Shown here piece by piece: positions 1 through 17,300 of a stretch of 64,000 nucleotides of DNA (positions are counted from its first letter, which is position 1; every line of letters starts with the position of its first letter). The notes under the pieces are model-generated. The model was not told the origin of the DNA and did not search any database. It saw nothing but the letters and a program-made list of their open reading frames with translations. Where the stretch lies: positions 6,330 through 70,329 of the forward strand of contig JBIOTN010000175.1 in assembly GCA_044866005.1 (NCBI GenBank), in the 5' to 3' direction. A program made the position numbers and the translations under genes. The stretch comes from Candidatus Rokuibacteriota bacterium. Its GTDB lineage: Bacteria > Methylomirabilota > Methylomirabilia > Rokubacteriales > DASRDR01.

Positions 1-23
1 TGGGCGGCGGCACGCATCACCCG

Positions 24-2477
24 ATGTTCCTTCAGGCCCACCTGCACCTCTTCTATCCCCTGAACGTGCTCTGGCTCGGCCTCGCCGAGCGGAAGCAGTT
101 CATCCCCCACGCACTCCTCCAGTACCATCACGCGTTTCACTACCTCCTGGCGGGCGTCTTCACCTACGCGTACGGACGCCAGCTCGGGCTGGCCCGGTTT
201 CCCGCGAGCCTGGCCGGGATCGCCTTCATGTTCTCGGGGTTCCTGCTCGCGCACGTCCAGCACTGGACGATGGTGGACACGATCGTCTGGCTCCCGCTCG
301 TCCTGGCGTGCGTGGTCCGGGCCGACGCGACCGGCCAGCGGCGATGGGGCGTCCTGGCCGGGCTCGGCCTCGGGATCGCCTTCCTCGCGGGGCATCCACA
401 GATCTTTTACTACATGGCCCTGGTCGCGGCCGCGCTCGGGCTCACGCTCCTCGGTCGGCGGGTCATGGCGCGGCAGCCCTGGGCGCGCCTCGCGACGGTC
501 TACCTCCTCGTGCCGGCCGTCGCGCTCGGCATCGCGGCGGTGCAGCTCCTGCCGTCGTGGGAGGCGGCGCTCGGCTCGCACCGCGCGGGACTCGACTACG
601 GCTGGAAGGCGATCGGCTCCTATCGTCCGGCGTTCCTGCTGCAGCTCGTTCTTCCCTGGGGCCTCCTGCCGGTCGAGGGGTGGCAGGCCAGCACCTCGGA
701 GTTCTACCTCTATCCCGGGATCCTTCCCCTCGTGCTCGCCGGGTACGCGGTGGCACGACGGTGGGACTGGCGGGTGGGCTTCCATGCGGCGGTGGCGCTC
801 GGCGCGGTCCTCCTGGCCTTCGGCGACAACTACGGCGCGTTCCGTCTGGCCTACGAGCTGATCCCCGGGCTGGGCCTCTTCCGGATCCCGGCCCGGATCC
901 TGGGACTCGTGAGCTTCGCGCTGGCCGTGCTCGCTGGGCTCGGCGCGCAGACGCTCCTCGGGGAGTCCGGATCACCGGGGCTGACGCGCTTCCTCCGCGC
1001 CGCCCTCGCCATCGCCGGGATCGGCGCCGTCGCCGTCCACCTCCTGCTCGTCCGTAGCCAGGCGCCGCCGGCCTCGGACCTCGCCCAGCGCCTCGCCGAC
1101 CAGTACGTCATGCTCGCTCTCCTCCTCGCCGGGACCCTGCTCGTCGTCAGCTGGCGGCCGCGCGCGTCGCCCGCGCTCGTCCGGGCCGGCCTCCTCGTCA
1201 TCCTGCTCGTCGATCTCCTCTTCGGCTCGTTCAGCCTCGGCAGCGCCGCGTCCAACCCGGACCACCGCCCGCCGGCCGAGCCGGAGTGGCTCGCCGTGCT
1301 GCGTCAGGAGCGGGAGCCGATCCGCCTGAGCCGGGGCCGGCGAATCCATCCCCGCCTGATCTACGAGCACGGCTGGGGCATCGTCGACGGCGAGAGCACG
1401 TTCGCGCCCCCGGCGTTTCTGGACCTGTACGGGCTGATCGAGGCGAACCCGCGGATCTTCGACCTCCTCAACGTGAAGTACGTGGTGACGGGATCGAGCC
1501 GCGAGCTCCGCGTGCCGCGCGCGAAGTTCGGGCGGCTCGCGCTCTGGCCGGACGCCCTTCGCCGCGTGGCGCTGCCGGCACCCACGGCGGCGCGCACGCT
1601 CGAGCTCGACTCCCACCTGGTGTACGGCGCCGGCGTGCCCCAGGGCGCGCCCGTCGCCGTGGTCCACGCCGTCTTCGAGGACGGCTCGACCGAACGGTTG
1701 ACCCTCCGTGCGGGCGTGGAGACCGCCGAATGGGCGCTCGACCGTCCGGGAAGCGCGGCGCGCCACGGCCGGCCGCCGGCGATCGCGCGCTCCTGGACCG
1801 TCGGCGACGAGGGCTTCCGCGGGCACACGTACCGGGCGACCCTGCCGCTGCGGCCGGCCGGGCGGCTCACCGAGCTGATCGTCGAGCACGCCGGGACGGA
1901 CGCGGTGCTGGTCGTCGAGGCCCTGCGCCTCGATGGCCGCGATCCGCCGCCGCCCCCCGACCGGCTGGAGCCCGTCGTCCCGGGGCTCTACCGGAACCGC
2001 TACGCGCTGCCACGGGCGTTCCTCGTCCGCCGCGCGCGGCAGGTCCCCCCGGAGCGCATCCTCGACGCGCTGCGCGATCTGGACCCCGCCGAGGAGGCCC
2101 TCGTGACCGACCCGCTGCCGACCGGCTGGCCGACGCCGGGCCGGCCGACGGGACCCCCCCTCCCGGCGGTCCGGATCGTCGACTACCTCCCGGAGCGGGT
2201 CCGCCTGGAGACCGAGGTCGCCGAGCCGCTGATCCTGGTCCTCGGCGACACCTACGATGCGCGCTGGCGCGCCTGGGACAACGGCCGGCCGGTCCCCATC
2301 CTCCGCGCCGACCATGCGCTCCGCGCGGTCCCCCTCCAGCCGGGCCGCCATGTGGTCGAGTTCCGCTACCGCCAGCCCTCGTTCTGGGTCGGCCTGGCGC
2401 TCTCGCTCGGGACGATCGGCGCCGTCGTGACCGGCGGCCTTGTCGCGGGCCGCCGACGGGGGAAGCGCGCGCCCTAG
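24..2477 (+). CDS. YfhO-family GT-C membrane glycosyltransferase (N-terminus may extend upstream of the window)
   Basis: ORF 24..2477 (817 aa): many N-terminal TM helices, DLLNVKYVV motif, large periplasmic domain and a C-terminal TM anchor (RYRQPSFWVGLALSLG) typical of the YfhO family. The frame stays open back to nt 3. Confidence 0.8.
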   Translation: MFLQAHLHLFYPLNVLWLGLAERKQFIPHALLQYHHAFHYLLAGVFTYAYGRQLGLARFPASLAGIAFMFSGFLLAHVQHWTMVDTIVWLPLVLACVVRADATGQRRWGVLAGLGLGIAFLAGHPQIFYYMALVAAALGLTLLGRRVMARQPWARLATVYLLVPAVALGIAAVQLLPSWEAALGSHRAGLDYGWKAIGSYRPAFLLQLVLPWGLLPVEGWQASTSEFYLYPGILPLVLAGYAVARRWDWRVGFHAAVALGAVLLAFGDNYGAFRLAYELIPGLGLFRIPARILGLVSFALAVLAGLGAQTLLGESGSPGLTRFLRAALAIAGIGAVAVHLLLVRSQAPPASDLAQRLADQYVMLALLLAGTLLVVSWRPRASPALVRAGLLVILLVDLLFGSFSLGSAASNPDHRPPAEPEWLAVLRQEREPIRLSRGRRIHPRLIYEHGWGIVDGESTFAPPAFLDLYGLIEANPRIFDLLNVKYVVTGSSRELRVPRAKFGRLALWPDALRRVALPAPTAARTLELDSHLVYGAGVPQGAPVAVVHAVFEDGSTERLTLRAGVETAEWALDRPGSAARHGRPPAIARSWTVGDEGFRGHTYRATLPLRPAGRLTELIVEHAGTDAVLVVEALRLDGRDPPPPPDRLEPVVPGLYRNRYALPRAFLVRRARQVPPERILDALRDLDPAEEALVTDPLPTGWPTPGRPTGPPLPAVRIVDYLPERVRLETEVAEPLILVLGDTYDARWRAWDNGRPVPILRADHALRAVPLQPGRHVVEFRYRQPSFWVGLALSLGTIGAVVTGGLVAGRRRGKRAP

Positions 2478-2579
2478 CCGTCCGACGGCCCACGCCGGCC
2501 GCCGGCCAGGCCCGGCGGCCGCCCGGCGGGCCGCGCGGGTCCACGGGAGCGGACGGTGCGCCCCGGACCGGCCGGCGGG

Positions 2580-5318
2580 TCACTCGAAGGCGTCGAGCTC
2601 GGCGAGGCTCCAGGCACTCGCGGCCGCGGGTCCGTCGGACGAGAGCCGGAGGTAGCGCAGCGAGGTCGGGGGAAACGCGACCGCCCAGCTCTCCTCCCCG
2701 TTCCGCAAGAGCTCCGAGCCGGACCAGTAGAGCGGCCCCGCCCACGCGAGGGGCTGAAGCGCGCGCCAGTCGCGGCCGTCCACCGACCCTTCGACCCGGA
2801 GGCCCCGCGCTCCGCCCGCCGCCGGCCCGGGCCGGCCCGCCAGCCCGCCGACCCGGCGCACCTGGCCGAGATCCACCGTGAGCTGGCTCGCCGGCGTCGC
2901 GCCCGCCTGCCAGCGCGTCTCGTCGGCCCCGTCGATCGCGTGCCAGGCCTCCGCCGTGTTCTCGCTCGCCGTCGCGCGCCACCCGTCCCGCGGCAGCCGC
3001 CGCGGCACCGGCCCCGGGGTCAGGAGGAGCAGGCGGTACGCGCCGGCGGCGCGCTCCCGGACCGCGATGCCCTGGCCCGCGAGCATGGCCCGGACGCCCG
3101 GGGCGTCGGCGTCGGCCCCCAGAAGGATCGCGTAGTCCCGTCGCGCCCGGAAGCGCCCGAGCTCTCGAGGGTCGGGCGAGTGCCCGTAGGAGTTCGTGGC
3201 CGCGTTCGACTGCTCGCCGGCGATGCGGCCGTGGGACTCGGCCTGGACCCACGCCGACAGCCAGTGATCGGCGTACACGAACTGGACGCCCTCCTCGCGC
3301 AGCGCCGCCGTGATCTCTCCCTCCCGCGGCAGCGGCGGACGCGGCCCTCCCGGTCCGTACACGAACAGCTCCCGCGCCGCCCAGTCGCGATACGGGACCT
3401 CTCCCGTCTGCACCAGCCGCACCAGCCGCGTCCGCACCGGCGGGAAGATCGCCTGCACGCGCCCCTGCCGCACCTTGAGGAATGCATGGTGCTCGGAGAA
3501 GAACAGCGGCCCCCAGTACTGCGGGACGACGACCACCGGCTGCCAGCGCTTGCCGTCTCTCGACACCTCCACGCGATACCCCGAGGGCACCTCCTGCCAG
3601 TCGATCGCCAGGAGATCCACCCGGGTGACCGTCTCCTCCCTGCCGAGATCCACGGCGACCCACTGCCCCGGCGCCTGCGGGCCGGGGCTCCGCCACCCCG
3701 TCGACGCGTCCCGGTCGATCAGGTTCGCCGCCTCCGACGCGTTCCCGCTCGCCCTCACCACCCATCCCTCGGGCCCGATCGGCACGAACCCCGTGGCGAA
3801 GGTCGGCACCGGCTCGAGGACGTAGATCGCGCCCACCGGCGTCTCGCGGACGTCGATGCCGAGGGCCCGCAGCCCGCTGTGAAGCTCCTTCCGGAGCGTT
3901 CGGGTCACGATGGGCGGCGCCGCCGCGGCGTCCACCGCGTGGGCGTGCGGCAGCGCGCCCTCGCGCCAGAGATCGGCCGCCACGATCCGCATCCCCGTGA
4001 GGTAGGTGAACTCGTACGATTGCAAGTGGGGCACGTCGGCGAAGTAGACCCGCCGGATCCCCCGCTCGTCCAGCCAGCGCACCACCGGGGCCATGCGCCC
4101 CTTGACCGAGGCCCAGCGCCACTGGGACGGGGTGGTCCGGGCCACGGTGTCCCCCGTGTTGCTCCAGGCATGGAGGCCGAGCAGCGTGGCCAGCGCTGCG
4201 GCGCCGACCGCTCGCCGCGCCGACCACAGCCCGTGGAGCGTGTCGCCGATCCAGTACGGCAGGACGGAGTAGAGCGGCAGGAGGTAGCGGCCTTCGAGGG
4301 GACGCGAGCTGACGGCGGCGAGGGCGAGGTTGGCGAGCAGCACCCCCCACAGGAGCAGTCGGCCAGCCGCGGCCGGGGGCGCGGACCGCCGCGCCCCCGC
4401 GGCCCACCTCAGCGCGCCACGGTCTCGGATCGCGGCCCCGACGACCGCGGCCACGGCGAGCAGCAGCACGGCCAGCTCGAGCACGCCCTCCAGGGAGGGT
4501 GTCAGGCGAGCGAGCCGGACGCCCAGCACATCGGGAATCAGTCGGCCGGTCAGGAGGCGGATCCGTTCGCCGAGGGGCTCGGCCTCGACGTAGCCGGCCT
4601 GGTGCAGGACGAAGCGGCTCGAGGGGAAGTACTGCGCCTCGTACACCCACGCGGGCAGCCCGCCGAGGGCCAGGCCGCCGACGAAGAGCCAGATCCGGGG
4701 GCGCCAGAGGAGGCCCGTCCGCACCGCCAGGAGGCCGAAGGGCACCAGGTACACCACGACCAGCGGATTCGTCCACCACCCCAGGCCGGTCAGGAGGCCC
4801 AGCACGAGGAGCGCGCGCGGACACCCCGGGCGGCGAAAGAAGAGGGTATGGGTGGCGAGCAGGACGAGGTTCCCGAGGAGCACCAGGAAGATCCAGTTCA
4901 TGTTCCCCGAGAGGCTCCAGTGGGACAGCTCGACCGGAGGGACGGCCAGGACGGCCAGGGCGAAGAGCGCGGGGATGGGCTCGAGGACGCGTCGCGCCAG
5001 CAACCAGCCGGTCCACAGACACGCGACTCCCGCCGCCCAGGCGAAGATGTCCAGCGCGACCGAGGACCCGCCGGCCAGGGTGAACCAGATCGCCAGCGGG
5101 TAGGACGGGCTCGCGCCCAGGTACTCGATCGTCATGTGGTGGACCGGGAAGTCTCCCCCGAGGGCCTGGAGCGCCTGGATCGCGAGCTTGCTCTCGTCCC
5201 AGTGCGCCCAGGCCAGGCCGGCGAAGCGCCCCGCAAACCTGAGAGCGCGGACGAGCGCGCCGAGCGCGAGGAGGGCCACGACCACGAGCACGGCCCGCGG
5301 CGGCCTCAGTCGAAACAC
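2580..5318 (-). CDS. ArnT/PMT-like GT-C glycosyltransferase fused to two C-terminal F5/8 type C (discoidin) domains, paralog A
   Basis: C-terminal part of the fused minus ORF 2580..8015. It has a multi-TM N-terminal domain with a loop-1 acidic motif (WDES), then two discoidin-like modules (DASTGWRSPGPQAPGQWVAVDLG and ETRWQAGATPASQLTVDLG). The start is taken as GTG 5318..5316 (RVFRLRPP...), which overlaps the stop of paralog B. GTG at 5289 is the alternative. Confidence 0.75.
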   Translation of the reverse strand: MFRLRPPRAVLVVVALLALGALVRALRFAGRFAGLAWAHWDESKLAIQALQALGGDFPVHHMTIEYLGASPSYPLAIWFTLAGGSSVALDIFAWAAGVACLWTGWLLARRVLEPIPALFALAVLAVPPVELSHWSLSGNMNWIFLVLLGNLVLLATHTLFFRRPGCPRALLVLGLLTGLGWWTNPLVVVYLVPFGLLAVRTGLLWRPRIWLFVGGLALGGLPAWVYEAQYFPSSRFVLHQAGYVEAEPLGERIRLLTGRLIPDVLGVRLARLTPSLEGVLELAVLLLAVAAVVGAAIRDRGALRWAAGARRSAPPAAAGRLLLWGVLLANLALAAVSSRPLEGRYLLPLYSVLPYWIGDTLHGLWSARRAVGAAALATLLGLHAWSNTGDTVARTTPSQWRWASVKGRMAPVVRWLDERGIRRVYFADVPHLQSYEFTYLTGMRIVAADLWREGALPHAHAVDAAAAPPIVTRTLRKELHSGLRALGIDVRETPVGAIYVLEPVPTFATGFVPIGPEGWVVRASGNASEAANLIDRDASTGWRSPGPQAPGQWVAVDLGREETVTRVDLLAIDWQEVPSGYRVEVSRDGKRWQPVVVVPQYWGPLFFSEHHAFLKVRQGRVQAIFPPVRTRLVRLVQTGEVPYRDWAARELFVYGPGGPRPPLPREGEITAALREEGVQFVYADHWLSAWVQAESHGRIAGEQSNAATNSYGHSPDPRELGRFRARRDYAILLGADADAPGVRAMLAGQGIAVRERAAGAYRLLLLTPGPVPRRLPRDGWRATASENTAEAWHAIDGADETRWQAGATPASQLTVDLGQVRRVGGLAGRPGPAAGGARGLRVEGSVDGRDWRALQPLAWAGPLYWSGSELLRNGEESWAVAFPPTSLRYLRLSSDGPAAASAWSLAELDAFE

Positions 5319-8065
5319 TCGAGCTCCTCGATGACCCACGGGGCCGCGGCCGCCTCCACCGCCGGCGAGAGCCGCAGGTAACGCAGCGCGGTCGCTGGAA
5401 ACGACACCGCCCAGCCGTCCTTGCCGTGGCGCAAGAGCTCCGACCCCGACCAGTACACCGGCCCCGCCCACGCCAGCGGCTGAAGCGGCGTCCACGCCCG
5501 CCCGTCCATCGAGCCCTCGAGCCGAAGCGGCGCGAGACCGCCCGCGCCAGGCCCCGGGCGCACGGCGACGCGGCTCACCCGGCGTCCCTGTCCCAGGTCC
5601 AGCGTGAAGCGCATCGCCGGGCGCGCCGGGCCCGGCGAGGCCCAGGCCGTCCCCCGGTCGCCGTCGATGGCGAGGGGCGCGGCTGCCGCGTTCTCGCTGG
5701 CCGTGGCCCGCCAGCCGCCCCTGGCGAGGCGGGCCGGCGGCGCCGTCCGCGCGGTGATCACCAGCAGGGGGTAGGGCCCCGCCGTCGTGTCCCGCACGGC
5801 CACCGATTGGCCGGCGAGCATGGCCCGGATGGCCGCCGGATCCCCGTCCGACCCGACCAGGATGGCGTGCCCCGGCTCGGCCCGAAAGCGATCCAGGCTC
5901 TCGGGTGGGGGCAGCGTGCGCCCGTACGCATTGAGATTGATGTTGGACGGGAGCGCCCCGATCCTTCCTCGGGACTCCGCCTGCACCCGGGCCGAGAGCC
6001 AATGATTGGCGTAGACGAAGCTCACCCCCGCCTGGCGCAGCGCCGCCGTCAGCTCCCCCTCGCGCAGAACGCTGGGGCGGCCCGGGCCCGGGCCGTAGAC
6101 GAACAGCTCCCGCGCCGCCCAGCCCTGATACGCCACCTCCCCCGTCTGCACGACGCGCACCCGCCGCGCCCGCCGCGGCGGAAAGATCGCCTGCACCCGC
6201 CCGCGCCGCGCTTTCAAGAACGCGTGGTGCTCCGAAAAGAACAGCGGCCCCCAGTACTCCCGGACCGCGACCACCTCCCGCCAGCCCTCGGCTGCCTGGA
6301 AGACCTCCACGCGGAAGCCCACCGGCACCTCTCGCCACTCCACCGCCAGCAGGTCCACCCGCGCCACCGTCTCCTCCCTGCCGAGGTCGACCGCGATCCA
6401 CTGCCCCGGCCGCTGCGGTCCGGCCGTCCGCCAGCCCGTGGACGCGTCGCCGTCGATCAAGTTCGCGGCCGCCGCCCCATTCTCGCTGGCGCTCGCCGCC
6501 CAGCCGTCCGGCCGGATCGGCACGAACCCCGTCTGGAACGTCGGCAGGGGCTCGAGCACCAGGATCCCGGCCCGCCTCGTCTCTCGCGCCGCCATGCCGA
6601 TCCCTCGCAGGCTCTCCCGCAACGGTCCGGCCAGCCGGCTCCGTTCCCGCAGGAGGATGGGCGGCGCCTCGGCCGCGTCCACGAGGTGGCCGTGGGAGAC
6701 CGCTTCCTCGTTCCAGAGGCTGGCGGCGACGACTCGCCTTTCGGCCAGGTAGCTGAACTCGTAGGCCGGCATCCGCAAGGGGTCCACCCAGTAGGCGCGT
6801 CGGATCCCGTCTGCGTCCAGCCACCGCATCAGCGGCTGCGCCGCCCGCGCCACGGGGGCCCAGCGCCGGTCCTCCGCCGGCGTCCGGCCCAGCGTGTCCA
6901 CCCAGTTCGCCCACAGGTGAGCGCCGAGGATCAGGACGACCGCCGCGCGCCCCAGGGCCGGTCGCAGGCGCGCCAGCCAGGACAGCGCCTCGCCCATCCA
7001 GCACGGCGCCACGGAGTAGAGCGAGAGCAGATAGTAGTTGTCGGGGGTCCGGGACGTCGCGAGGATCAGAGCCAGGTTCGTGAGCGCCACCCACCAGAGG
7101 ATCGAGCGGCCTCCCGCGGGACCGCCGCCCAGGCCGATCGTCCACGCGAGCTCGCGCCGGTCCTCCCGTGCCGCGCGGATCAGCGCGAGCCCCCAGAGCA
7201 GAAGGAGGGCGAGCGGCAGGACCGCGGCCGCCGATCGCATCCCCCGGAGATCGACTCCCAGGATGCTGGGGATGAACTTGCCTGCCACGAGGGCCAGCCG
7301 ATCCCGAAACTGCTCCAGCCCGACCGACCCGGCGAGCGCGAAGCGGGACGACGGGAAGTGCTGGAGCTCGTAGAGCCAGGCGGGGAGCCCCCCCAGGAGC
7401 ACGCCCAGGGGAACGAGCCCGGCGCGGGCCCGCCAGAGCAGCGCGGTCCGCACCGCGAGCAGGCCGAACGGCGCCAGGTAGACGACGATCAGCGGATTGG
7501 TCCACCAGCCGAGCCCGGCGAGGACTCCGAGAACCAGCAGCGTGCGGCGACGCCCGGGCCGGCGGAAGAACAGGGTATGGGTGGCGAGGAGCAGCAGATT
7601 TCCGATGATCAGCAGTCCGCTCTGGTTCAGGTTCCCGATGAGACTCCACCGCGCGAGGATCAGGGGCGGAACGGCCAGGACCGCCAGGGCGAGAAGCGCC
7701 GCCCGCGGCGGGAGAAGCCGGCGCGCCACGAGGTACGCGGTCGTGAGGACCCCGAGTCCGACGCCGTAGTCGAACAGATCCAGGGCCAGCGTCGAGGCGC
7801 CGGCGACGGCGAACCAGACGGCGAGGGGATAGGACGGCGCGGCGCCCAGATACTCGAGCCCCAGGATCTGGACGGGGAGCTCTCCTCCCAGGATCTCCAT
7901 GGCGGGGAGCGCGTACCGCGCGTCGTCCCAGTGGGCCCACCAGAACAGGCGCCCCCAGAACCGGAGCGCCCGCACGGCCGCCCCCACCGCGAGGAGCACG
8001 AGCACGGGCAGCCACGCCGGGAGGCGGCGCGCCCCCGGCGACGCGGCCTCGAGCGCGTGCGCCAC
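5306..8065 (-). CDS. ArnT/PMT-like GT-C glycosyltransferase fused to two F5/8 type C domains, paralog B
   Basis: Real part of ORF 5306..8623. The N-terminal roughly 180 codons of that ORF are low-complexity out-of-frame noise. The TM domain carries WDDA, and the C-terminus has tandem discoidin-like repeats ([25 protein letters not shown] and DGDRGTAWASPGPARPAMRFTLDLG). A GTG start at 8065 sits 12 nt after the GT2 stop. Confidence 0.75.
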   Translation of the reverse strand: MAHALEAASPGARRLPAWLPVLVLLAVGAAVRALRFWGRLFWWAHWDDARYALPAMEILGGELPVQILGLEYLGAAPSYPLAVWFAVAGASTLALDLFDYGVGLGVLTTAYLVARRLLPPRAALLALAVLAVPPLILARWSLIGNLNQSGLLIIGNLLLLATHTLFFRRPGRRRTLLVLGVLAGLGWWTNPLIVVYLAPFGLLAVRTALLWRARAGLVPLGVLLGGLPAWLYELQHFPSSRFALAGSVGLEQFRDRLALVAGKFIPSILGVDLRGMRSAAAVLPLALLLLWGLALIRAAREDRRELAWTIGLGGGPAGGRSILWWVALTNLALILATSRTPDNYYLLSLYSVAPCWMGEALSWLARLRPALGRAAVVLILGAHLWANWVDTLGRTPAEDRRWAPVARAAQPLMRWLDADGIRRAYWVDPLRMPAYEFSYLAERRVVAASLWNEEAVSHGHLVDAAEAPPILLRERSRLAGPLRESLRGIGMAARETRRAGILVLEPLPTFQTGFVPIRPDGWAASASENGAAAANLIDGDASTGWRTAGPQRPGQWIAVDLGREETVARVDLLAVEWREVPVGFRVEVFQAAEGWREVVAVREYWGPLFFSEHHAFLKARRGRVQAIFPPRRARRVRVVQTGEVAYQGWAARELFVYGPGPGRPSVLREGELTAALRQAGVSFVYANHWLSARVQAESRGRIGALPSNINLNAYGRTLPPPESLDRFRAEPGHAILVGSDGDPAAIRAMLAGQSVAVRDTTAGPYPLLVITARTAPPARLARGGWRATASENAAAAPLAIDGDRGTAWASPGPARPAMRFTLDLGQGRRVSRVAVRPGPGAGGLAPLRLEGSMDGRAWTPLQPLAWAGPVYWSGSELLRHGKDGWAVSFPATALRYLRLSPAVEAAAAPWVIEELECFD

Positions 8066-8076
8066 GAGCGGCAGAG

Positions 8077-8835: not shown

Positions 8836-8878
8836 GGAGTCCGATTCTGCCTCATCGACGTCGCGGGGGAAAGCGTCC

Positions 8879-8887
8879 TGATACAAT
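8879..8887 (+). promoter_or_regulatory. extended -10-like element TGaTACAAT, suggesting a leaderless or very short-leader transcript for paralog C
   Basis: cctGaTACAATggg is 11 nt upstream of ATG 8898. The first ATG (8886) lies inside the hexamer. Confidence 0.3.
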
Positions 8888-8897
8888 GGGCAGGCGC

Positions 8898-11651
8898 ATG
8901 GCCTCCCCGCCTCCGCCCGCCGGCGCCGCCCGGGTCGGGATCGCTTCGACGTTCCGCGCCGGACGCCTCTTCCGCGTCGCACTCGCGGTCACCGCCCTCG
9001 GCCTCGCGATCCGTCTGGGCGCCGCCGTCACCGCGCCGATCTGGTTCGACGAGGCGACGGTCGGGCTCATGGGCCGCCACGTCCTGCGGGGGGACTTCCC
9101 GTGGTTCTTCTACGGCCAGACGTTCATGGGCGCGGCGGAGGCGTACCTCCACGCCATCCCCTTCGCCCTGTGGGGCGCCTCGGAGACGACCTTGCGCCTG
9201 TGGCCGGTGACCCTGTCGCTCGTCCACGCCGCGCTCGTCGGCCTCCTGGCACGGCGCCTCTTCGGGATGGGGCGCTTCGCCGCCCTGCTGGCCATCGTCC
9301 CCCCGCCGTTCCTCCTCAAGTGGGCGTACGACGCCCGGCTCCACTACGACGCGATCCTCGTCTTCACGCCGCTCCTCCTCCTGCTCGGCCTCGTCGTGCT
9401 CGACGCGGCCCGGACGCCGGCCGAGCGGAGCCGCGCGCTCCTGGTCTTCGCCGTCGTCGCCGGGATCGGATGGTGGATCAACCTGCTGCTCTCGCTCCTC
9501 CCCGCGGCGCTCGCGGTGGCGCTCCTCCTCGTCCGGCCACGGCTGCACCCCTCGGCCTGGGCCGCGCCCCTGGGGTTCCTCGCGGGGAGCGCGCCCTTCT
9601 GGCTCTTCTCGCTGGCTCACGGTCGGCTGGCCCTGGGCACGGCGCGGCTCGTCTCGGCGCCCGATCTGGCCGACCACGGGCGGGAGCTCGTCCTGCACGC
9701 CCTGCCGATCGTCCTGGGTCTCCCCGCGCGATGGCTCCCCGGCCTGCCGCGCCCCGGCCTGGCCGTGGCCGGCGTCGGCCTCGTCCTCGCCGCCGCCGTC
9801 GTGGCGCTCGGCGATCGCCGCGCCCGGGCGGGCGGCCGGCTCCTCCTGGCGACGCTCGTGGCGCTGACGGTCGCCTCCGTGCTGGCCACCGAGCACGGGC
9901 GGAACCTCGCGACCGAAGACCCGCGCTACCTGCTGCCCCTGGTCGCCGTCCTGCCCGTGCTGGTGGGCGGGGCCCTGGCGCGCCTTCATCGCGTCTCGCC
10001 CGTCGTGGCCGGCGCCGCCGCGCTCCTGCTCGTCCTGTCGAACGGCGCCGGCCTCATCACGCGCTACTCGTTCCTCGTCTCGCCCGCGAGGTGGCAGGCG
10101 TACCGGCTCTCCGTGCTCGGCCCGGCGCAGCGCGTGGCCTTCATGCGCGCGCGCGGGCTTACCGCGCTCTACACCCACGACCCGGACGTCCTCACCTTCG
10201 TGAGCGGCGAGCGGGCGAGCGTCTCCCACTTTTACCTGGAGTCCTACCCACCGCTGGCGCGGCACGTGGACGGCGCCGAACGCGTCGCCTACTTCTCGCA
10301 GGACCCGCCGGCCGGCTTCGCCGAGAGCCTGACGGCCGCCGGCATCCGGTTCGCGCGCATGCGCTCCCCGCTCGGGACCCTCTACACCGAGTTCACCCTC
10401 GAGCACGCCGACTACCGGGAGATCCCGCGAGAGCGGCTCGTCGCGACGGCCTCGGACCGTCCCCGGAGCGCCGCGCACGCCCTCGATCGCGACGCCGCGA
10501 CGCGCTGGGACAGCGGCGGGCCGGCGCGCGCCGGGACGTGGTTCCAGGTCGACCTCGGGCGGATCCACCCGATCGGCATGCTGGCGTGGCTTCCGGGCGG
10601 ATTCCAGGAAGTGCCCGCCGGCTTCCGCGTCGAGGCCTCGGCGGACGGCGAGGCCTGGACGACCGTCCGCGAGGCGGCGCCGTACTACGGACCGCTCTAC
10701 TGGTCCGGCGCCCATCCCCTGGGCCGCGTCCGGTGGGGCCGCGTCGAGGTGCGCTTTCCGAGCATATGGGCCCGCCATCTCAGGATCACGCACCTGGGCG
10801 AGCAGCAGCGCTTCCCCTGGAGCATCCGCGAGCTCTCCGTCTACGAGGCCCTGCCCGCGCTCACCGCGGTCCGGCCCGCCGACGTCGGCGCGACCGCCGC
10901 CGCGCTCCGTCGCGCCGGGATCGAGCGCGTCTACGCCGACCACGGCGTGGGCGCCCGGCTCGCGGCGGCCGCCGGGCAGGCCCTCGCCCTCCAGCCGGCG
11001 AACCTTCGCGTCGACGCCTACGGCTGGAGTCCCGCGCCGAACGAGCTGCCGCTCTTCCGGCCGCACGCCGACACGGCCCTCGTCCACCCCGTCGGGCTCG
11101 CCTCGGCCGAGTCGATCCAGGCCATGCTCCGGGACGCGGGCTGGACCTTCGCCGTCGAGGAGGTCGGCGGCCACCGGATCCTGAGCCGCTTCACGCCCGG
11201 CGCGCTGCCGGCGGGTGGCAGCGCCCCGCGCATCGCCCGGGTCGTCGCGTCGACCGCCGGGGCCGACGCCGCGGCCGTCCTCGACGGGCAGCCCGCGACC
11301 CGGTGGACCACCGCCGGACCGCAGCGCCCGGGCGCCTGGCTGCGGGTCGAGCTCGCGGAGCCGGCCCGGGTCGCGGGGCTCGTGCTCGAGCTCGGCCCGT
11401 TCCGCACCGACTATCCCCGGGGCCTGGTGGTCGAGAGCTCGGCGGACGGCCTCGGCTGGGACCCCGTGCGCGCCGACCTCCTGCTGCTCGGGCCGCTCCG
11501 GTGGACGGGCACGCACCTCCTCCGGGACGGGGTCGATCGCGTGCTCCTGCGCTTCGTGCCGCGACGGACCCGCGCGCTCCGGCTGACCTTGACGGGCCAG
11601 GATCCGGTTTTCGACTGGTCGGTCGCGGAGCTCCGGCTCTTCGGCGGCTGA
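8898..11651 (+). CDS. ArnT/PMT-like GT-C glycosyltransferase fused to two F5/8 type C domains, paralog C
   Basis: ORF 8886..11651. The TM domain carries the FDEA loop motif. The C-terminus has two discoidin-like modules ([26 protein letters not shown] and [26 protein letters not shown]). It is divergent from the GT2 gene at 8835. The start is ATG 8886 or 8898. Confidence 0.8.
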
Positions 11652-11737
11652 ACGCCCCGCGCCCGCACGACCCGTCGGCGAAGCCTGAGGCCCGGACACG
11701 CTGCCGTTTTCCGGCCGCCGGCCCGCCCGGGGGCCGC

Positions 11738-11746
11738 TGGTATAAT
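11738..11746 (+). promoter_or_regulatory. extended -10 promoter element TGgTATAAT
   Basis: Exact TGnTATAAT, 25 nt upstream of ATG 11771, in an otherwise ~75% GC context. Confidence 0.45.
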
Positions 11747-11770
11747 GCCCCGGTGGACGCGGGACCTTCC

Positions 11771-13192
11771 ATGCGGCTGTCCGTCGTCGTGCCGGTCTAC
11801 AACGAGCGGCTCACGCTGCCCGAGATCCTCGAGCGGATCCAGGCGGTCACGATCCCCAAGGAGATCGTGATCGTCGACGACGGCTCCACGGACGGGACCC
11901 GCGAGATGCTCCGGCAGCTCGAGGCCGAGCTCGATGCGGCCCGGCGGGCCGGCACGTTCGACGAGAAGAACGAGATCCGGGTCTTCTACCAGGAGACGAA
12001 CCAGGGAAAGGGCGCGGCGCTTCGCCGGGGGTTTGCCGAGGCGCGGGGCGACATCGTCCTGGTGCAGGACGCCGACCTCGAGTACGACCCCCGCGAATAT
12101 CCCAAGCTCATCGCCCCCATCCTCGACGGCAAGGCCGACGCGGTCTACGGCTCCCGCTTCATGGGCTTTCCCCGCCGGGTCCTCTTCTTCTGGCACCACC
12201 TGGCCAACAAGTTCCTCACGCTCGCCTCGAACGTGGCCACCAACCTGAACCTGACCGACATGGAGACGGGCTACAAGGCCTTCCGGGCGGACATCATCAA
12301 GAGCATTCCGATCCGCTCGAACCGGTTCGGGGTCGAGCCCGAGGTGACGGCGAAGCTCGCGAAGCTGCGCGCCCGGATCTACGAGGTCCCCATCTCGTAC
12401 GCCGGCCGCGGGTACTGGGAAGGGAAGAAGATCCGCTGGACCGACGGCGTGGCGGCGCTCTGGACCATCCTGAAGTACGTGGTCGTGGACGACCAGGACA
12501 ACGCCGACCCGGGATACCAGACGCTCCTGCGCCTGGGGCGCGCCGAGCGCTACAACCGCTGGATGTTCGGCCAGCTCCAGCCCTACCTGGGGCAGCGGGT
12601 CCTGGAGATCGGCGCGGGGATCGGGACCCTGACCCGCTACCTGGTCGGGCGCGACCTCGTCCTCGTCAGCGAGCTGAACCCGCGCTACGTGCGGATCCTG
12701 GCCAACACCTTCGAGCGCCACACGCGCGTCCACGTGCTGCCGCTGGACCTCGAAGGCTTCGACCCCGCGGCGCTGCGGACCCACCGGCTCGACACCATCG
12801 TCTGCCTCAACGTCCTCGAGCACGTGCAGGACGACCGCGGGGCGCTCCGGCGGCTCCACGAGAGCCTGGTCCCGGGCGGGCGGCTCGTGCTCCTCGTGCC
12901 GGCGCACCGGCGGCTCCACGGCGCCATCGACGAGGCGCTCGGTCACCACCGGCGCTACGAGCGGGCGGAGCTCGCGGCCCGGCTTCAGGAGGCCGGCTTC
13001 CAGGTCGAGCGCCTCGCCTTCTTCAACCGGCTCGGCGTGCTGGGCTGGTACCTGAACAGCGTCCTGCTGCGCCGGAGCCGCGTCCCGGGACTCCAGGTGC
13101 GGCTCCAGAACCTGCTCGTCCCGGTCCTGCGCGCCGAGGGGGCCCTCTCGCTGCCCTTCGGCCTCTCCCTGATCGGCGTGGGGCGGACGTAG
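11771..13192 (+). CDS. bifunctional GT2 (Dpm1-like) / class I SAM-dependent methyltransferase fusion
   Basis: N-terminus [19 protein letters not shown]...[11 protein letters not shown]...[10 protein letters not shown] is a GT2. The C-terminus [14 protein letters not shown]...[10 protein letters not shown] is the Rossmann-fold methyltransferase motif I. This is the real C-terminal part of track ORF 9101..13192. Confidence 0.85.
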
Positions 13193-13196
13193 CGGC

Positions 13197-13886
13197 GTGG
13201 CCTCCCCGCTCGCGCACGGGCTGGCCGGGGCCGTCGTGTACGCCGCGCTCACGCCGCGCAGCGCGACGGCGTGGGACTGGCGGCCCTGGGCGCTCGCGGC
13301 GTTCGCGGGGGCGGCGGCGGACCTGGACTTCCTGCCGGGCCTGGTCGTCGGCCATCCCAACCGCTACCACCACTGGGCCACGCACAGCCTGCTCGCCGCC
13401 GTCGCCTTCGCCCTGGTCGTGGGCGCCGTGGCGTCCCCGGCGCTCGGCTCGCTCCGCCGCCGGGCGAGCGTGCTCGGCCTCGCCTACCTCTCGCACCTCG
13501 GGCTCGACGTCCTCACCGCGCACGTGCGGGTCCAGGGCATCCCGCTCTTCTGGCCGCTCTCCGACCGCGTCTTCATCGCGCCGGTCAGCGTCTTCTGGCA
13601 CGTCCGGCACGGCCACGGCTGGGCGGCCTTCGTGAACTGGCACAACGTGGGGGCGGTCCTCCTCGAAGCGCTCCTCGTCGGCATCCCCGTCGCCCTCGTC
13701 CTCGCCTGGCGCGCCATGCGCGAGACCCGCGACGCAACAGCGCCGGCTTTCCCCGGGGGGAGGCAGGCCCGATCCGTTCGCCGCCACGGCCGGGACTCCG
13801 TCCCGGCCGCCAATCGATCAGAACGGCCGCGGCTCAGGCCCGGAGGGCCGTCGGAGGGGGGCAACGCCCCCCTCCGAAGCGTATGA
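13197..13886 (+). CDS. membrane-bound metal-dependent hydrolase (DUF457/YdjM-like)
   Basis: Multi-TM protein with conserved His clusters (HPNRYHHWATHS, HLGLDVLTAH). GTG start lies 4 nt after the preceding TAG. Confidence 0.65.
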   Translation: MASPLAHGLAGAVVYAALTPRSATAWDWRPWALAAFAGAAADLDFLPGLVVGHPNRYHHWATHSLLAAVAFALVVGAVASPALGSLRRRASVLGLAYLSHLGLDVLTAHVRVQGIPLFWPLSDRVFIAPVSVFWHVRHGHGWAAFVNWHNVGAVLLEALLVGIPVALVLAWRAMRETRDATAPAFPGGRQARSVRRHGRDSVPAANRSERPRLRPGGPSEGGNAPLRSV

Positions 13887-14851
13887 GGCGCTGGAAGCTC
13901 TGGCTCGGGATCGCGGTGAGCGCGGGGCTCCTCTACCTCGCCGGGCGCGGGGTCGAGCTGGAGGAGCTCCAGCGCTCGCTCGGCGAGGTCCGGACGGCGT
14001 GGCTCGTCCCGGTGCTCGCCAGCATCCTTGTCCGCTTCTGGCTCACGGCGCTGCGCTGGCGGATGCTCCTCCGGCCGATCAAGGCGATCGCGGTGCACCG
14101 GCTCTTCGGCGTCACCATGATCGGCTTCATGGCGAACAACGTGCTGCCGGCGCGCATGGGCGAGTTCGTCCGGGCCTACGCGCTCGGGAAGTCGGAGTCG
14201 CTCTCCAAGTCGCTCTCGTTCGCCACCATCGTCCTGGAGCGCGTGTTCGACGGCTTCACGCTGCTCGCCTTCCTCCTGGTCGGCGTCCTCGCCCGCCGGC
14301 CGGAGCCCTGGCTCGTCTGGTCGGCGGTCGGCTCCTTCTGCCTCTACCTGGGCGTGCTGGGCGGACTGCTCTGGTTACGGCACGGGCGCGGCCTCGGCGC
14401 GCTGCTGGCGTGGCTGCCGGAGGCCCTCCGCCGCCGGGCGGCCGGGCCCCTCGATTCGTTCACGCTCGGGCTCGACGTCTTGAACGACGGCCGGGCGCTC
14501 GGGCTCGTGGCCCTGCTCTCGCTCGGGATCTGGCTCGTCAACGTCGCGGGCTTCTACGCGATGTTCCTGGCCTTCTCGCTGGATCTCCCGCTCGACGCGG
14601 CGTTCCTCGTCCTCGCCATCATCGCGGTCGCGCTGGTCATCCCCTCGACGCCCGGCTACGTGGGGCCCTTCCAGGCGGGAACGGTGCTCGGGCTCGCCCT
14701 CTTCGCGGTGCCGAAGGCCACGGCGCTGTCGCTCTCCATCGTCTACCACGCCGTCAACTACGTCCCCATCACCCTCATCGGTCTCGCCTACCTGGGGGTC
14801 ATGAACCTGACGCTCGGCGAGCTCCGCGCGGCGGGGGAGAAGGTCTCGTGA
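13883..14851 (+). CDS. flippase-like TM protein (UPF0104 / MprF C-terminal-like)
   Basis: MRRWKLWLGIAVSAGLLYLAG..., 8 predicted TM helices. The ATG overlaps the upstream stop as ATGA. It is the real part of ORF 13271..14851. Confidence 0.8.
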   Translation: MRRWKLWLGIAVSAGLLYLAGRGVELEELQRSLGEVRTAWLVPVLASILVRFWLTALRWRMLLRPIKAIAVHRLFGVTMIGFMANNVLPARMGEFVRAYALGKSESLSKSLSFATIVLERVFDGFTLLAFLLVGVLARRPEPWLVWSAVGSFCLYLGVLGGLLWLRHGRGLGALLAWLPEALRRRAAGPLDSFTLGLDVLNDGRALGLVALLSLGIWLVNVAGFYAMFLAFSLDLPLDAAFLVLAIIAVALVIPSTPGYVGPFQAGTVLGLALFAVPKATALSLSIVYHAVNYVPITLIGLAYLGVMNLTLGELRAAGEKVS

Positions 14852-15837
14852 GCGGGCCGGCGGGACGGCCGCCGGACGTGGCCGGCATGGTGTCGATCGT
14901 CGTCCCCGTCTACAACGAGGCGCAGAACGTCGGCCCGTTGCTGGAGAGCGTGCGCGACGTGCTCGACGGGCTCGGCCGCCCCTGGGAGCTGATCGTCGTG
15001 GACGACGGCTCGACCGACGACACGGCGGCGCGGCTGCGGGAGCTGACGGCGCGGGTGCCGGCGCTCCGGGTGGTGCGCCTGCGGTCGAACTTCGGGCAGT
15101 CGGCCGCGCTGGCGGCGGGATTCGACCTGGCGCGGGGCGAATTCGTCGTCACGATGGACGGGGACCGCCAGAACGACCCGGCCGACATCCCGCGGCTCCT
15201 GGACGAGCTCAAGGACGGCTACGACGTCGTGAGCGGATGGCGGCGGGAGCGGCGAGACCCCTTCTGGTCGCGGCGCGTCCCCTCCCGCCTGGCGAACGCG
15301 CTCATCTCCTGGATCACCGGGGTGCGCCTCCACGACTACGGCTGCGCGCTCAAGGTCTACCGGCGCGAGATCCTCCGCGACATCCAGCTCTACGGGGAGA
15401 TGCACCGGTTCCTCCCCGCGCTCGCCCGCTGGGTGGGCGCGACGGTCGGCGAGGTTCCCGTCACGCACTGGCCGCGACGGAGCGGCGTCTCGAAGTACGG
15501 GATCGGACGGACGGTCCGCGTGCTGCTCGATCTCCTGACCGTGAAGTTCCTGATGAGCTACTGGACGCGACCGATCCAGATCTTCGGCCTCCTGGGCCTC
15601 GCGGTGGGCGGGAGCGGGATGCTGCTGGCCGTGGTCCTCTCGTATCAAAGGATCGTCCAGGGCGTGCCGCTGGCGAACCGGCCGATCCTGCTGCTGGCCG
15701 TGCTGCTCGTCGTCGTGGGCGCGCAGTTCGTGGGCATCGGCCTTCTCGGAGAGATGATGGTCCGCACCTATCACGAGTCCCAGCGGAAGCCCGTCTACAG
15801 CGTGCGAGAGATCGTCTCCGGCGAGGACCGCCCGTGA
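14848..15837 (+). CDS. GT2 polyprenol-phosphate glycosyltransferase (GtrB/CsbB/ArnC-like) with C-terminal 2-TM anchor
   Basis: MVSIVVPVYNEAQNV...LIVVDDGSTDDT...TMDGDRQNDP, with C-terminal TM helices. GTG 14848 overlaps the upstream stop (GTGA) and follows the RBS GGGGGAGAAGG. ATG 14887 is the alternative start. Confidence 0.85.
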   Translation: MSGPAGRPPDVAGMVSIVVPVYNEAQNVGPLLESVRDVLDGLGRPWELIVVDDGSTDDTAARLRELTARVPALRVVRLRSNFGQSAALAAGFDLARGEFVVTMDGDRQNDPADIPRLLDELKDGYDVVSGWRRERRDPFWSRRVPSRLANALISWITGVRLHDYGCALKVYRREILRDIQLYGEMHRFLPALARWVGATVGEVPVTHWPRRSGVSKYGIGRTVRVLLDLLTVKFLMSYWTRPIQIFGLLGLAVGGSGMLLAVVLSYQRIVQGVPLANRPILLLAVLLVVVGAQFVGIGLLGEMMVRTYHESQRKPVYSVREIVSGEDRP

Positions 15838-16613
15838 AGACCGGGCCTGCCGGCCGGACGGGGGCGCGCGGCCTCCTCCTCCTGGCCGTCGTGCTGGCCC
15901 TCGCCGCCTGCGGCGGCAGCAGCAGCAAGACGACGGGGCCCAATGCCCCGACGAGCTTCAACTTCGGGTCGAACGATCCCCGGCGCGCCACCGCCTTCGG
16001 GGACAGCATCACGGTCGGCGTCCTCGACCTGCGGGTCCGGGGGAACCTCACCACGAGCAGCAACTACCCCGCCGTCCTCCAGGGGATGCTCCAGGGCCTG
16101 GACCCCGCCTGGCGCGTCGTCAACCGGGGCGTGGGCGGCGAGCGGACGGCGGGCGGGTTTCGGCGGTTTTCCAGCGTGCTGGCCGCCGACCACCCGGGGT
16201 TCGTGCTCATCATGGAAGGGACGAACGACGCCTCGGAGGAGGACGATCCCGCCTTCATCGCCGCGAACCTCGACGCGATGGTGGGGCAGGCGCAGGACAA
16301 TCACACGATCCCGATCCTCGGCACGATCCCGCCGAACTTCCGGAACGATCCGCAGGCCCGCGCGATCATCGACGAGGCGAACGTGCTCATCCGGAACATC
16401 GCGCAGGCGCGCGGCATCGTCCTCGCGGAGATCTTCAACGGGATGAACGATCGCACGCTCTTCGGCATCGCGCCCGACCGGGACCCCATCCACCCCAACG
16501 AGCGCGGCTACGGGGTCATGGCGGGCATCTGGTTCAGTGCGATGCGGCAGGCCATCCCGCCGTCGGCGGCGCCGCCGCCCATGGCCCAGAAGCAGCGTCG
16601 GGCCCGGCGGTAG
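15834..16613 (+). CDS. SGNH/GDSL hydrolase-family lipoprotein
   Basis: Signal peptide plus lipobox LALAAC. GDSI motif (AFGDSITVG) and C-terminal DxxH (DPIHPNERG). GTG 15834 overlaps the upstream TGA (GTGA). Confidence 0.8.
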   Translation: MKTGPAGRTGARGLLLLAVVLALAACGGSSSKTTGPNAPTSFNFGSNDPRRATAFGDSITVGVLDLRVRGNLTTSSNYPAVLQGMLQGLDPAWRVVNRGVGGERTAGGFRRFSSVLAADHPGFVLIMEGTNDASEEDDPAFIAANLDAMVGQAQDNHTIPILGTIPPNFRNDPQARAIIDEANVLIRNIAQARGIVLAEIFNGMNDRTLFGIAPDRDPIHPNERGYGVMAGIWFSAMRQAIPPSAAPPPMAQKQRRARR

Positions 16614-17266: not shown

Positions 17267-17300
17267 GGCGGCGGCTCTGGCAAGCGGCAGAGGGCAAACA

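Follow-up and report, generated by a model that had tools for sequence, protein, structure and literature searches.

Extracytoplasmic glycosylation from polyprenyl-phosphate sugars is well understood in only a few models, namely O-antigen seroconversion, teichoic acid decoration, mycobacterial arabinan and lipid A modification. Among the closest described systems are GtrA/GtrB/GtrX of Shigella and Salmonella, CsbB/GtcA/YfhO, and GacI/J/K/L, in which a family 2 glycosyltransferase (GT2) synthase with a transmembrane (TM) hairpin and an extracytoplasmic glycosyltransferase of the GT-C fold occur once each. Here we describe a locus of ten genes (g1 to g10) in the first 16,613 positions of a 64,000-nucleotide stretch of DNA (the window) from a Candidatus Rokuibacteriota bacterium (contig JBIOTN010000175.1, positions 6,330 to 70,329), which is, in our view, probably a composite locus that serves extracytoplasmic glycosylation in a diderm bacterium of the Methylomirabilota type. 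As in the Gtr-type systems, a GT2 with a membrane hairpin (g9, resembling GtrB) occurs together with extracytoplasmic GT-Cs, one of which belongs to the YfhO family, and the genes for synthase, flippase candidate and GT-Cs are adjacent and co-conserved. In contrast to those systems, there is a UPF0104 protein instead of GtrA/GtcA, there are several synthases and at least four GT-Cs, the GT-Cs carry paired domains of carbohydrate-binding module (CBM) family 32 type, and the host is a diderm.

Mycobacterial AftD and EmbA/B/C resemble the GT-Cs of this locus in having a GT-C membrane domain followed by periplasmic carbohydrate-binding modules and in using lipid-monophosphate sugar donors (predicted here), and tandem arrays of paralogs are common to embCAB, to the gene pair g3-g2, and to arrays of three and four genes in two of the related loci described below (L001 and L009). 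They differ in that the CBMs here are of the F5/8 type C (CBM32-like) kind, donors would come from GT2s rather than from the phosphoribosyl pyrophosphate/DprE route, and the phylum is not actinobacterial. In a pentofuranose three-component system of Citrobacter youngae, the GT-C ORF12 (GT136) binds the unmodified polysaccharide backbone through an appended CBM, the assignment of the flippase relied on context alone, and variants with several GT-Cs were noted (PMC11127046). Our locus likewise has GT-Cs with appended CBMs and a predicted flippase; the Citrobacter system has a phosphoribosyltransferase synthase and a MATE flippase, whereas here GT2 synthases accompany UPF0104 (PMC11127046). In archaea, UPF0104 is fused to the dolichyl-phosphate-sugar GT2 AglD and lies in a conserved neighbourhood with proteins resembling STT3 and the protein mannosyltransferases (PMT) (PMC5898192; bioRxiv 10.1101/2022.03.11.483950). 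That system (arCOG00899) combines UPF0104, a GT2 similar to the dolichyl-phosphate-mannose (DPM) synthase DPM1 and a PMT/STT3-like GT-C, the same three classes as g8, g9/g6 and the GT-Cs here (PMC5898192); it handles dolichol-based N-glycan sugars, whereas our locus has separate bacterial genes and CBM-bearing GT-Cs, and flipping is a prediction in both.

Layout and extent of the locus

The region has a GC content of 70-79%, and long spurious open reading frames (ORFs) therefore occur in all frames; we called genes with a third-position GC frame plot and a start-codon survey. The ten genes include two tightly packed divergent operons that are 50 bp apart (8836-8885), an interval that we presume from the gene coordinates to be a shared promoter region. 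The minus-strand operon consists of g4 (8835-8077), a short soluble GT2 of the DPM1/PpgS type, followed by the GT-C/discoidin paralogs g3 (8065-5306) and g2 (5339-2580). The plus-strand operon begins with a third GT-C/discoidin paralog, g5 (8886-11651), and continues with g6 (11771-13192), a GT2 similar to DPM synthase and AglJ that is fused to a class I S-adenosylmethionine (SAM) methyltransferase, g7 (13197-13886), a YdjM/DUF457 inner-membrane protein, g8 (13883-14851), a UPF0104/LPG_synthase_TM protein (the MprF flippase-domain family; PplT/AglD2), g9 (14848-15837), an ArnC/GtrB-type GT2, and g10 (15834-16613), a GDSL/SGNH hydrolase lipoprotein that is predicted to be periplasmic. The remaining gene, g1 (plus strand, 1-2477, its 5' end cut off by the window), encodes a YfhO-family GT-C membrane protein and converges on g2. 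An earlier note on this DNA had placed ten genes of these families at these coordinates, and both the frame plot and the Pfam and NCBIfam scans agree with it; the gene content, family relationships and tight packing are direct observations.

As to the packing, g7/g8, g8/g9 and g9/g10 each overlap by 4 nt, g6 is separated from g7 by 4 nt and g4 from g3 by 11 nt, and g3 overlaps the start of g2. Pfam and NCBIfam scans found no GtrA/GtcA-family protein among the ten genes, and since the intergenic gaps are at most 120 nt there is no room for a further gene such as GtrA/GtcA. A scan of positions 1-19600 for promoters of the sigma-70 consensus and for intrinsic terminators gave no promoter and 4 terminators, where chance alone would give 3.9, and so contributes no evidence on operon structure.

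The window is ~99.9% identical to contigs JBIOYM010000024.1 and JBIOVG010000232.1 of metagenome-assembled genomes (MAGs). From a near-identical contig (L074), in which full-length g1 occupies 12842-15538, it can be seen that g1 encodes a protein of 898 aa that starts about 220 nt upstream of position 1, with the first 81 codons missing from the window. Public annotation gives g2 an alternative start at 5318, yielding a protein of 912 aa (exact match). The same near-identical contig shows that the locus extends to the left of the window (L074 15622-22739), where there are genes for a GT2 (237 aa), a SAM methyltransferase (341 aa), a GNAT protein (221 aa), a multi-pass membrane protein of 900 aa with a C-terminal ILEI domain and a weak DUF6311 match, and another GT-C/discoidin paralog, the fourth, with 39% identity to g5. 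We considered whether the 900-aa ILEI protein might be a GT-C of the same family; the family hidden Markov model (HMM) gives it no match.

GT-C paralogs and the YfhO-type protein

Of the three GT-C paralogs in the window, g2 (2580-5339, the last gene of its operon) and g3 (5306-8065) are 59% identical, and g5 (8886-11651) is the most divergent (35% identical to g2). The Pfam model PMT_2 matches g2 with 29.4 bits (cut-off 26.1), g3 with 24.6 bits, which is below the cut-off, and g5 not at all, while Pfam finds two F5/8 type C (discoidin/CBM32) domains in each of the three. Hydropathy at the threshold used gave 5-8 TM segments in the first ~390 residues of g2, g3 and g5. A search of a sequence profile of the family against the PDB matched only the discoidin/CBM32 parts and found no match for the membrane domain, and we therefore turned to structure comparison.

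An AlphaFold2 (AF2) model of g5 built on a 43-sequence alignment had a pLDDT of 91.6 and a pTM of 0.86, and was divided into a TM domain (~20-393), an alpha/beta domain (400-510), a discoidin domain (520-655), a second alpha/beta domain (665-770) and a second discoidin domain (780-921). When the model was searched against the PDB with Foldseek, the top match was mycobacterial AftD (6w98, E-value 1.4e-14), aligned over the whole length; ArnT (5f15/5ezm) matched with a target TM-score of 0.56-0.57 across 585 columns, and the C-terminal halves of the model matched CBM32 modules. On the strength of this model for g5, and of paralogy for g2 and g3, we assign all three to the GT-C fold, each predicted to carry two periplasmic units of an alpha/beta domain plus a discoidin/CBM32 domain. 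The earlier description of three ArnT/PMT-like GT-Cs, which did not mention the discoidin pairs, is in keeping with the AftD and ArnT matches of the g5 model. In Pfam, g3 and g5 had only sub-threshold matches to CBM_AftD (16-16.8 bits against a cut-off of 27), and the resemblance of g2, g3 and g5 to AftD and the Emb proteins is structural and architectural, with no family-specific Pfam membership. Asp55, right after the first TM segment (W-F-D-E in g5; W-D-E in g2 and g3), does not vary across alignments of 60 and 67 diverse relatives. We take this position to be the one where GT-C enzymes have their catalytic acid, and we infer a catalytic role for Asp55 in the g5 family.

Searches with residues 1-520 of g5, comprising the membrane domain and the first periplasmic alpha/beta domain, identified 2385 cluster representatives at E≤1e-3, 889 at E≤1e-10 and 57 at E≤1e-30. 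Among 60 diverse family representatives, F5/8 type C domains were found in 54, PMT_2 in 41 (E≤1e-3) and TMEM260-like matches in three. Members of the family are named 'hypothetical' or 'discoidin domain-containing' in the databases.

The fourth GT-C in the window, g1 (1-2477), has ~10 TM segments and matches Pfam PF09586 (YfhO) with 48.3 bits against a cut-off of 28.5, the match covering only profile positions 784-835 at the C-terminal end. We found 581 homologs to g1, and nearly all of the 120 listed have PF09586 and the NCBI name 'YfhO family protein'. There were also weak matches of g1 to PMT_2, PgfM2 and PgfM1. A search among solved structures (PDB) gave no significant sequence match for g1, nor for g7 or g8.

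These matches bear on the question of whether the GT-Cs might act on secreted or surface proteins (e.g., S-layer proteins or adhesins) in the manner of PMT, TMEM260 or PgfM1/PgfM2 of Streptococcus mutans. The PMT_2 matches in g2 and in 41 of the 60 relatives, the three TMEM260-like relatives, the weak similarity of g1 to PgfM2 and PgfM1, and the resemblance of the DPM1-like GT2s to Ppm1, the partner of actinobacterial Pmt, are all in line with such protein O-glycosylation. The S. mutans Pgf locus (PgfS, PgfM1, PgfE, PgfM2) is also similar in combining an ArnC-like GT2 with more than one YfhO-like GT-C; however, the scores here are far below the equivalog cut-offs of 500-1500, and Pgf glycosylates Gram-positive surface adhesins, with neither UPF0104 nor CBM32-bearing GT-Cs. 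The best structural matches are to AftD and ArnT rather than to PMT, MIR domains are lacking, and the presence of two CBM32-type modules in each enzyme suggests a carbohydrate ligand, although these modules could still bind a glycan already present on a protein. In addition, tandem arrays of up to four paralogs are more like the glycan-building Emb and Aft sets than like protein mannosyltransferases. With these points taken together, we regard protein O-glycosylation as an unlikely function of the locus.

GT2 enzymes

The clearest of the three GT2s in the window is g9 (14848-15837), of which residues 14-329 align with residues 9-320 of ArnC structures (E-value 2e-61), including the membrane hairpin; an alignment with GtrB (5ekp, E-value 3e-39) was also full-length. 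Hydropathy predicted two C-terminal TM segments. The NCBIfam ArnC model gave 229.6 bits, with its equivalog cut-off of 529 not reached, and the PgfS model 139.8 bits. By its sequence, g9 appears to be ArnC-like in architecture and is a candidate polyprenyl-phosphate sugar synthase with no assignable sugar.

The product of g6 (11771-13192) matches Pfam GT2 (122 bits) followed by Methyltransf_23/12/25/11, and the NCBIfam models AglJ (107 bits) and ArnC (69 bits); its best PDB matches were to the DPM synthase PfDPMS (E-value 8e-20) and then to ArnC (1e-15). It is the most conserved gene of the locus, its best 120 homolog clusters being 77-86% identical and all having the same fusion, whereas the GT-C genes are less conserved (about 50-60% identity). 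This strong conservation suggests a core function for g6 in the lineage. An AF2 model of g6 was built on a shallow alignment of these 77-86% identical sequences, reached a pLDDT of 62 and was unusable for a fold search.

Matches to g4 (8077-8835) are weaker, with 69 bits to Pfam GT2 and ~66 bits to the nearest NCBIfam models (dolichyl-phosphate-hexose transferase, PpgS and AglJ), and its best PDB match was to PfDPMS (5mlz, E-value 8e-7), followed by ArnC. We therefore assign g4 as a polyprenyl-phosphate synthase only tentatively. Neither g4 nor g6 has TM segments by hydropathy, as is the case for enzymes of the DPM1/Ppm1 type. The four GT2s of the extended locus (g4, g6, g9 and the one to the left of the window) are only 29-35% identical to each other, which fits different sugar donors, and as all GT2 scores fall far short of the equivalog cut-offs, the sugars cannot be named.

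The earlier note had taken g4, g6 and g9 to be polyprenyl-phosphate-sugar synthases. This is consistent with their nearest relatives, DPM synthase, ArnC and GtrB, in the case of g9 over the full length; for g4 it stays tentative, and the fusion of g6 to a methyltransferase had not been mentioned. We rejected the contrary possibility, which the note had itself raised, that these are processive GT2 polymerases: there is no multi-TM synthase architecture, and matches to PgaC and NodC are weak and limited to the N-terminus.

In the established Arn pathway the steps follow in the order ArnC/ArnD/ArnEF/ArnT. As ArnC is the closest solved relative of g9, and the sequence of a synthase, a hydrolase-like protein, a flippase-like protein and a GT-C mirrors that order, we asked how well the locus would fit an Arn/Lgm/Flm-like modification of lipid A or the lipopolysaccharide core, with g9 making a C55 polyprenyl-phosphate amino sugar, YdjM deacylating it, UPF0104 flipping it and a GT-C transferring it to lipid A. 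The score of g9 (229.6 bits) is far from the ArnC cut-off of 529, no ArnA, ArnB or ArnD-type genes were found in the scanned parts of the window, ArnT-type enzymes are without CBMs whereas these GT-Cs have two each, and four to six GT-Cs are far beyond what lipid A modification needs, all of which makes this explanation highly improbable.

UPF0104, YdjM and GDSL proteins

The flippase-like protein g8 (13883-14851) matches Pfam PF03706 with an E-value of 4e-54 over profile positions 2-302 of 302, passes the NCBIfam model TIGR00374 'flippase-like' (92.2 bits against a cut-off of 43.2) and has seven TM segments. It is the sole flippase candidate among the ten genes, with flipping predicted from its family. 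The flipping of polyprenyl-phosphate sugars by UPF0104 proteins is itself a prediction in the literature (PMC5898192; likewise PMC12713373, PMC10128005), and none of the proposed polyprenyl-monophosphate-sugar flippases has been directly demonstrated (PMC11127046). The family to which the earlier note had assigned g8 is thus secure (PF03706, TIGR00374), and the activity implied by 'flippase-like' stands as a literature prediction only (PMC5898192).

Upstream of g8, the product of g7 (13197-13886) belongs to the YdjM/DUF457 family (Pfam, 66 bits), as had been claimed; the label 'hydrolase' given along with it is nominal (NCBIfam, 22 bits against a cut-off of 216), and our search of the literature on DUF457/YdjM found nothing on glycosylation. 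YdjM/DUF457 occurs with an ArnC-like GT2 beside GT-C/discoidin genes in three lineages (L007 6947-7672, L008 905-1465 and L105 8453-8908; window 13197-13886). At the end of the operon, g10 (15834-16613) matches Lipase_GDSL_2 (96.5 bits) and has the lipobox LAAC at residues 23-26, in agreement with its earlier description as a GDSL lipoprotein, and we regard it as a candidate O-acyl esterase or transferase that may act on the glycan.

GpgS and HexS are GT-B-fold enzymes that act on diacylglycerol-based lipids. Their loci, gpgSDF of Pseudomonas aeruginosa and hexSDF of Clostridioides difficile, resemble ours in that a stand-alone UPF0104/MprF-like flippase candidate lies beside a glycosyltransferase and a hydrolase, and differ in having no GT-C, whereas here ArnC-like and DPM-like GT2s lie beside GT-C arrays. 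GpgS is annotated as GT4 and HexS as a monogalactosyldiacylglycerol synthase (PMC12713373, PMC10128005). It could be supposed from these systems that g6-g10 are a self-contained synthase/deacylase/flippase module for a membrane glycolipid and that the GT-C neighbours are functionally unrelated, since GpgF and HexF, the stand-alone UPF0104 proteins that have been characterised, come from modules of this kind (PMC12713373, PMC10128005), the operon has two hydrolase-like proteins (YdjM and GDSL), and g6 and g9 are very strongly conserved, as expected of a core membrane function. We find this quite improbable, because both glycosyltransferases of the operon are of the GT-A fold with nearest relatives that use polyprenyl phosphate, unlike GpgS and HexS, and because in unrelated lineages a g9-like GT2 gene occurs together with GT-C/discoidin genes, in one of them (L007) without UPF0104.

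Conservation in relatives

We scanned genomes by tblastn with the window proteins, and a metagenome scan with g9 returned 80 loci, of which 30 had g9 at ≥69% identity. Counted among those 30 as loci with the gene over loci with enough flanking sequence, g8 was directly upstream of g9 in 26/26, g10 directly downstream in 20/23, g6 upstream in 10/11, and a GT-C or YfhO gene further upstream in 3/4, with the reservation that the metagenomic loci are related to one another, so that these counts are not independent events and overstate independence. The co-conservation by which the earlier note had proposed to check the locus is thus present, in genes that are tightly packed. One locus (L087) repeats the layout of the window, with an ILEI protein, a GT-C/discoidin gene and a small GT2 divergent from g6-g8-g9-g10. 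Distant g9 homologs (48-61% identity) were mostly without these partners, with UPF0104 kept in three loci (L109, L110, L129).

GT-C genes occurred repeatedly in tandem, with three in L001, four in L009, two in L005, and at least two in each of L004, L007, L008, L010 and L011. A GT2 gene lies beside the delta-proteobacterial GT-C arrays, and GT2 and GT-C arrays are found together in L004, L007, L008, L010, L011 and L105. In the last of these, YdjM-UPF0104-g9 is next to GT-C genes. In the delta-proteobacterial MAGs L007 and L008, a g9 ortholog (57-58% identity) with a preceding YdjM gene is divergent from two tandem GT-C/discoidin genes, and this arrangement is the smallest version of the module. 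Genes for MreB and DnaJ adjoin the module in L007, the only such locus with flank on that side. Taken together, the gene orders suggest a conserved core operon (GT2-methyltransferase/UPF0104/ArnC-like/GDSL) with a variable GT-C array.

Host and the neighbouring exopolysaccharide island

The GC content of 74% suggested an actinobacterial host, which we ruled out as the window encodes a sigma-54 activator and the best matches are to Methylomirabilota. The sigma-54 activator, a Wza-type outer-membrane polysaccharide exporter that is also encoded in the window, and the finding that the closest relatives of the window proteins are in Methylomirabilota/Rokubacteria MAGs indicate a diderm host, and it follows that teichoic acid is not the acceptor. 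A search of the literature on glycans of Methylomirabilota/Rokubacteria found nothing specific.

To the right of g10 the GC content drops to 0.61-0.64, and at ~19.6-39 kb there are sigma-54 two-component regulators (a response regulator and a GAF histidine kinase) and a Wzx/Wzy-type exopolysaccharide (EPS) cluster with genes for an initiating sugar transferase, GT2, Wzc, Wza, Wzy, Wzx, a deacetylase, GH9 and GT4. The gene directly after g10 is, in at least 10 relatives, an ortholog (88% identity) of the aminotransferase at 49410-50756 of the window, after which come cyclase and nitroreductase genes in L087; in two other relatives an ortholog of AddB (window 42714) comes after g10. Judged by these gene orders, the block at ~16.7-42.7 kb (to 49.4 kb in some comparisons) is a lineage-specific insertion or island of roughly 26-33 kb. 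We had considered the Wzx/Wzy EPS cluster as an ancestral partner of the locus or its acceptor; this idea is weakened by the relatives in which g10 is directly followed by the aminotransferase or AddB gene, and the EPS block, being a lineage-specific insertion, gives no guilt-by-association evidence for the acceptor, which its product may nevertheless be.

Several features of this block were seen in passing. Right after g10, the frame at 16661-17266 (+) encodes an RHS repeat-associated core signature ('TEYTYEPFG...GLYYYRARYYHPSLQRFVSEDS') that lacks a full Rhs gene upstream and resembles an orphan Rhs toxin tip. Next come a 321-aa ORF at 17301-18266 with no Pfam match (possibly an immunity gene) and a fragment of an IS481-like helix-turn-helix transposase at 18739-19467. 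At 16660/16661 a sister contig (L070) has 1732 bp extra (17742-19473), with a 316-aa protein that has a faint NHL match, and the second sister contig stops at the same position, which marks the right border of the locus as a junction that varies between strains. At the edge of the EPS cluster (23297-24850, minus strand) is a 517-aa protein with an unusual combination of nucleotidyltransferase and GlmU-like hexapeptide domains and a partial C-terminal Bac_transf match that is sub-threshold (26.9 bits against a cut-off of 27). Inside the cluster (36230-37912, minus strand) a GH9 endoglucanase with a CelD_N domain lies beside GT4 and polysaccharide deacetylase genes, and the three together hint at a beta-glucan-type or partly deacetylated EPS polymer.

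Discussion

The folds, family relationships and conserved gene neighbourhoods described above are best accommodated, in our opinion, by a composite locus for glycosylation outside the cytoplasm; from them we infer enzymatic activities, flipping, sugars and acceptor. At the cytoplasmic face, distinct GT2s (g9, membrane-anchored; g6 and g4, peripheral; and the GT2 to the left of the window) would move sugars from nucleotide sugars onto polyprenyl phosphate. The methyltransferase part of g6 is likely to act on the sugar of that enzyme or on the lipid-linked intermediate, and the separate methyltransferase and GNAT protein to the left of the window may modify their donor likewise. The lipid-linked monosaccharides would then reach the periplasmic leaflet, most plausibly by way of the UPF0104 protein g8, and the flipped donors would be used by the GT-Cs, that is by the YfhO-type g1 and the ArnT/PMT-like g2, g3 and g5. 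The paired CBM32-type discoidin domains may hold a carbohydrate acceptor, as do the CBMs of AftD, EmbC and the GT136 enzyme ORF12, and if they do so, the acceptor would most likely be a polysaccharide or an already glycosylated surface molecule. The product is probably edited by the SGNH lipoprotein g10, through addition or removal of O-acyl groups.

A number of points weigh against this scheme. UPF0104 proteins have experimental ties only to diacylglycerol-based lipids (MprF, GpgF and HexF), and the one flippase candidate of the locus would have to serve three or four synthases. The module in L007 is without UPF0104, which indicates that UPF0104 is not obligatory (the L008 contig ends inside its g9 homolog), and on two long Methylomirabilota contigs the g5 ortholog occurs by itself, with no operon beside it. 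The similarity of g4 to DPM synthases is weak (E-value 8e-7; 66 bits against equivalog cut-offs above 325), the adjacent EPS cluster, an obvious candidate acceptor, is a lineage-specific insertion, and there is the mutual relatedness of the metagenomic loci that underlie the neighbour counts.

The general scheme of the earlier note, with synthases, a flippase-like protein and extracytoplasmic GT-Cs, agrees with what we found by sequence and structure comparison, and its analogy to Bacillus and Listeria is inexact. The locus is not, as was stated, 'exactly such a system' as CsbB/GtcA/YfhO, as there is no GtrA/GtcA-family protein and the diderm host has no teichoic acid. Nor did the idea of stacked three-component modules survive: with one flippase candidate, three synthases and four GT-Cs, there is a core operon with a variable array and no 1:1:1 units.

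A more far-reaching possibility is that the locus and its left extension are an assembly line of a 'mycobacterium-style' that builds, and does not just decorate, a complex heteroglycan wholly on the periplasmic face, using at least four polyprenyl-phosphate donors (some of them methylated or acetylated) and at least six GT-Cs (four AftD-like paralogs with two CBM32 modules each, YfhO and possibly the ILEI protein), with UPF0104 as the long-sought general polyprenyl-monophosphate-sugar flippase. We offer this as a speculation that is rather unlikely to hold in full.

The scheme itself is not new; what we describe is a known scheme varied by AftD-like GT-C/CBM32 arrays outside Actinobacteria, by the coupling of an ArnC-like synthase to UPF0104, and by a GT2-methyltransferase fusion. 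The host lineage is uncultivated, and study of the locus is thus limited to heterologous expression. The locus brings to light an unannotated GT-C family with an AftD-like architecture and paired CBM32 domains that occurs outside Actinobacteria, repeatedly in tandem arrays, and a strongly conserved fusion of a GT2 with a methyltransferase, from which a modified lipid-linked donor may arise. The pairing of UPF0104 with an ArnC-like synthase, found in 26/26 loci, is a bacterial link between the two and would be a clean place to test one of the proposed polyprenyl-monophosphate-sugar flippases.

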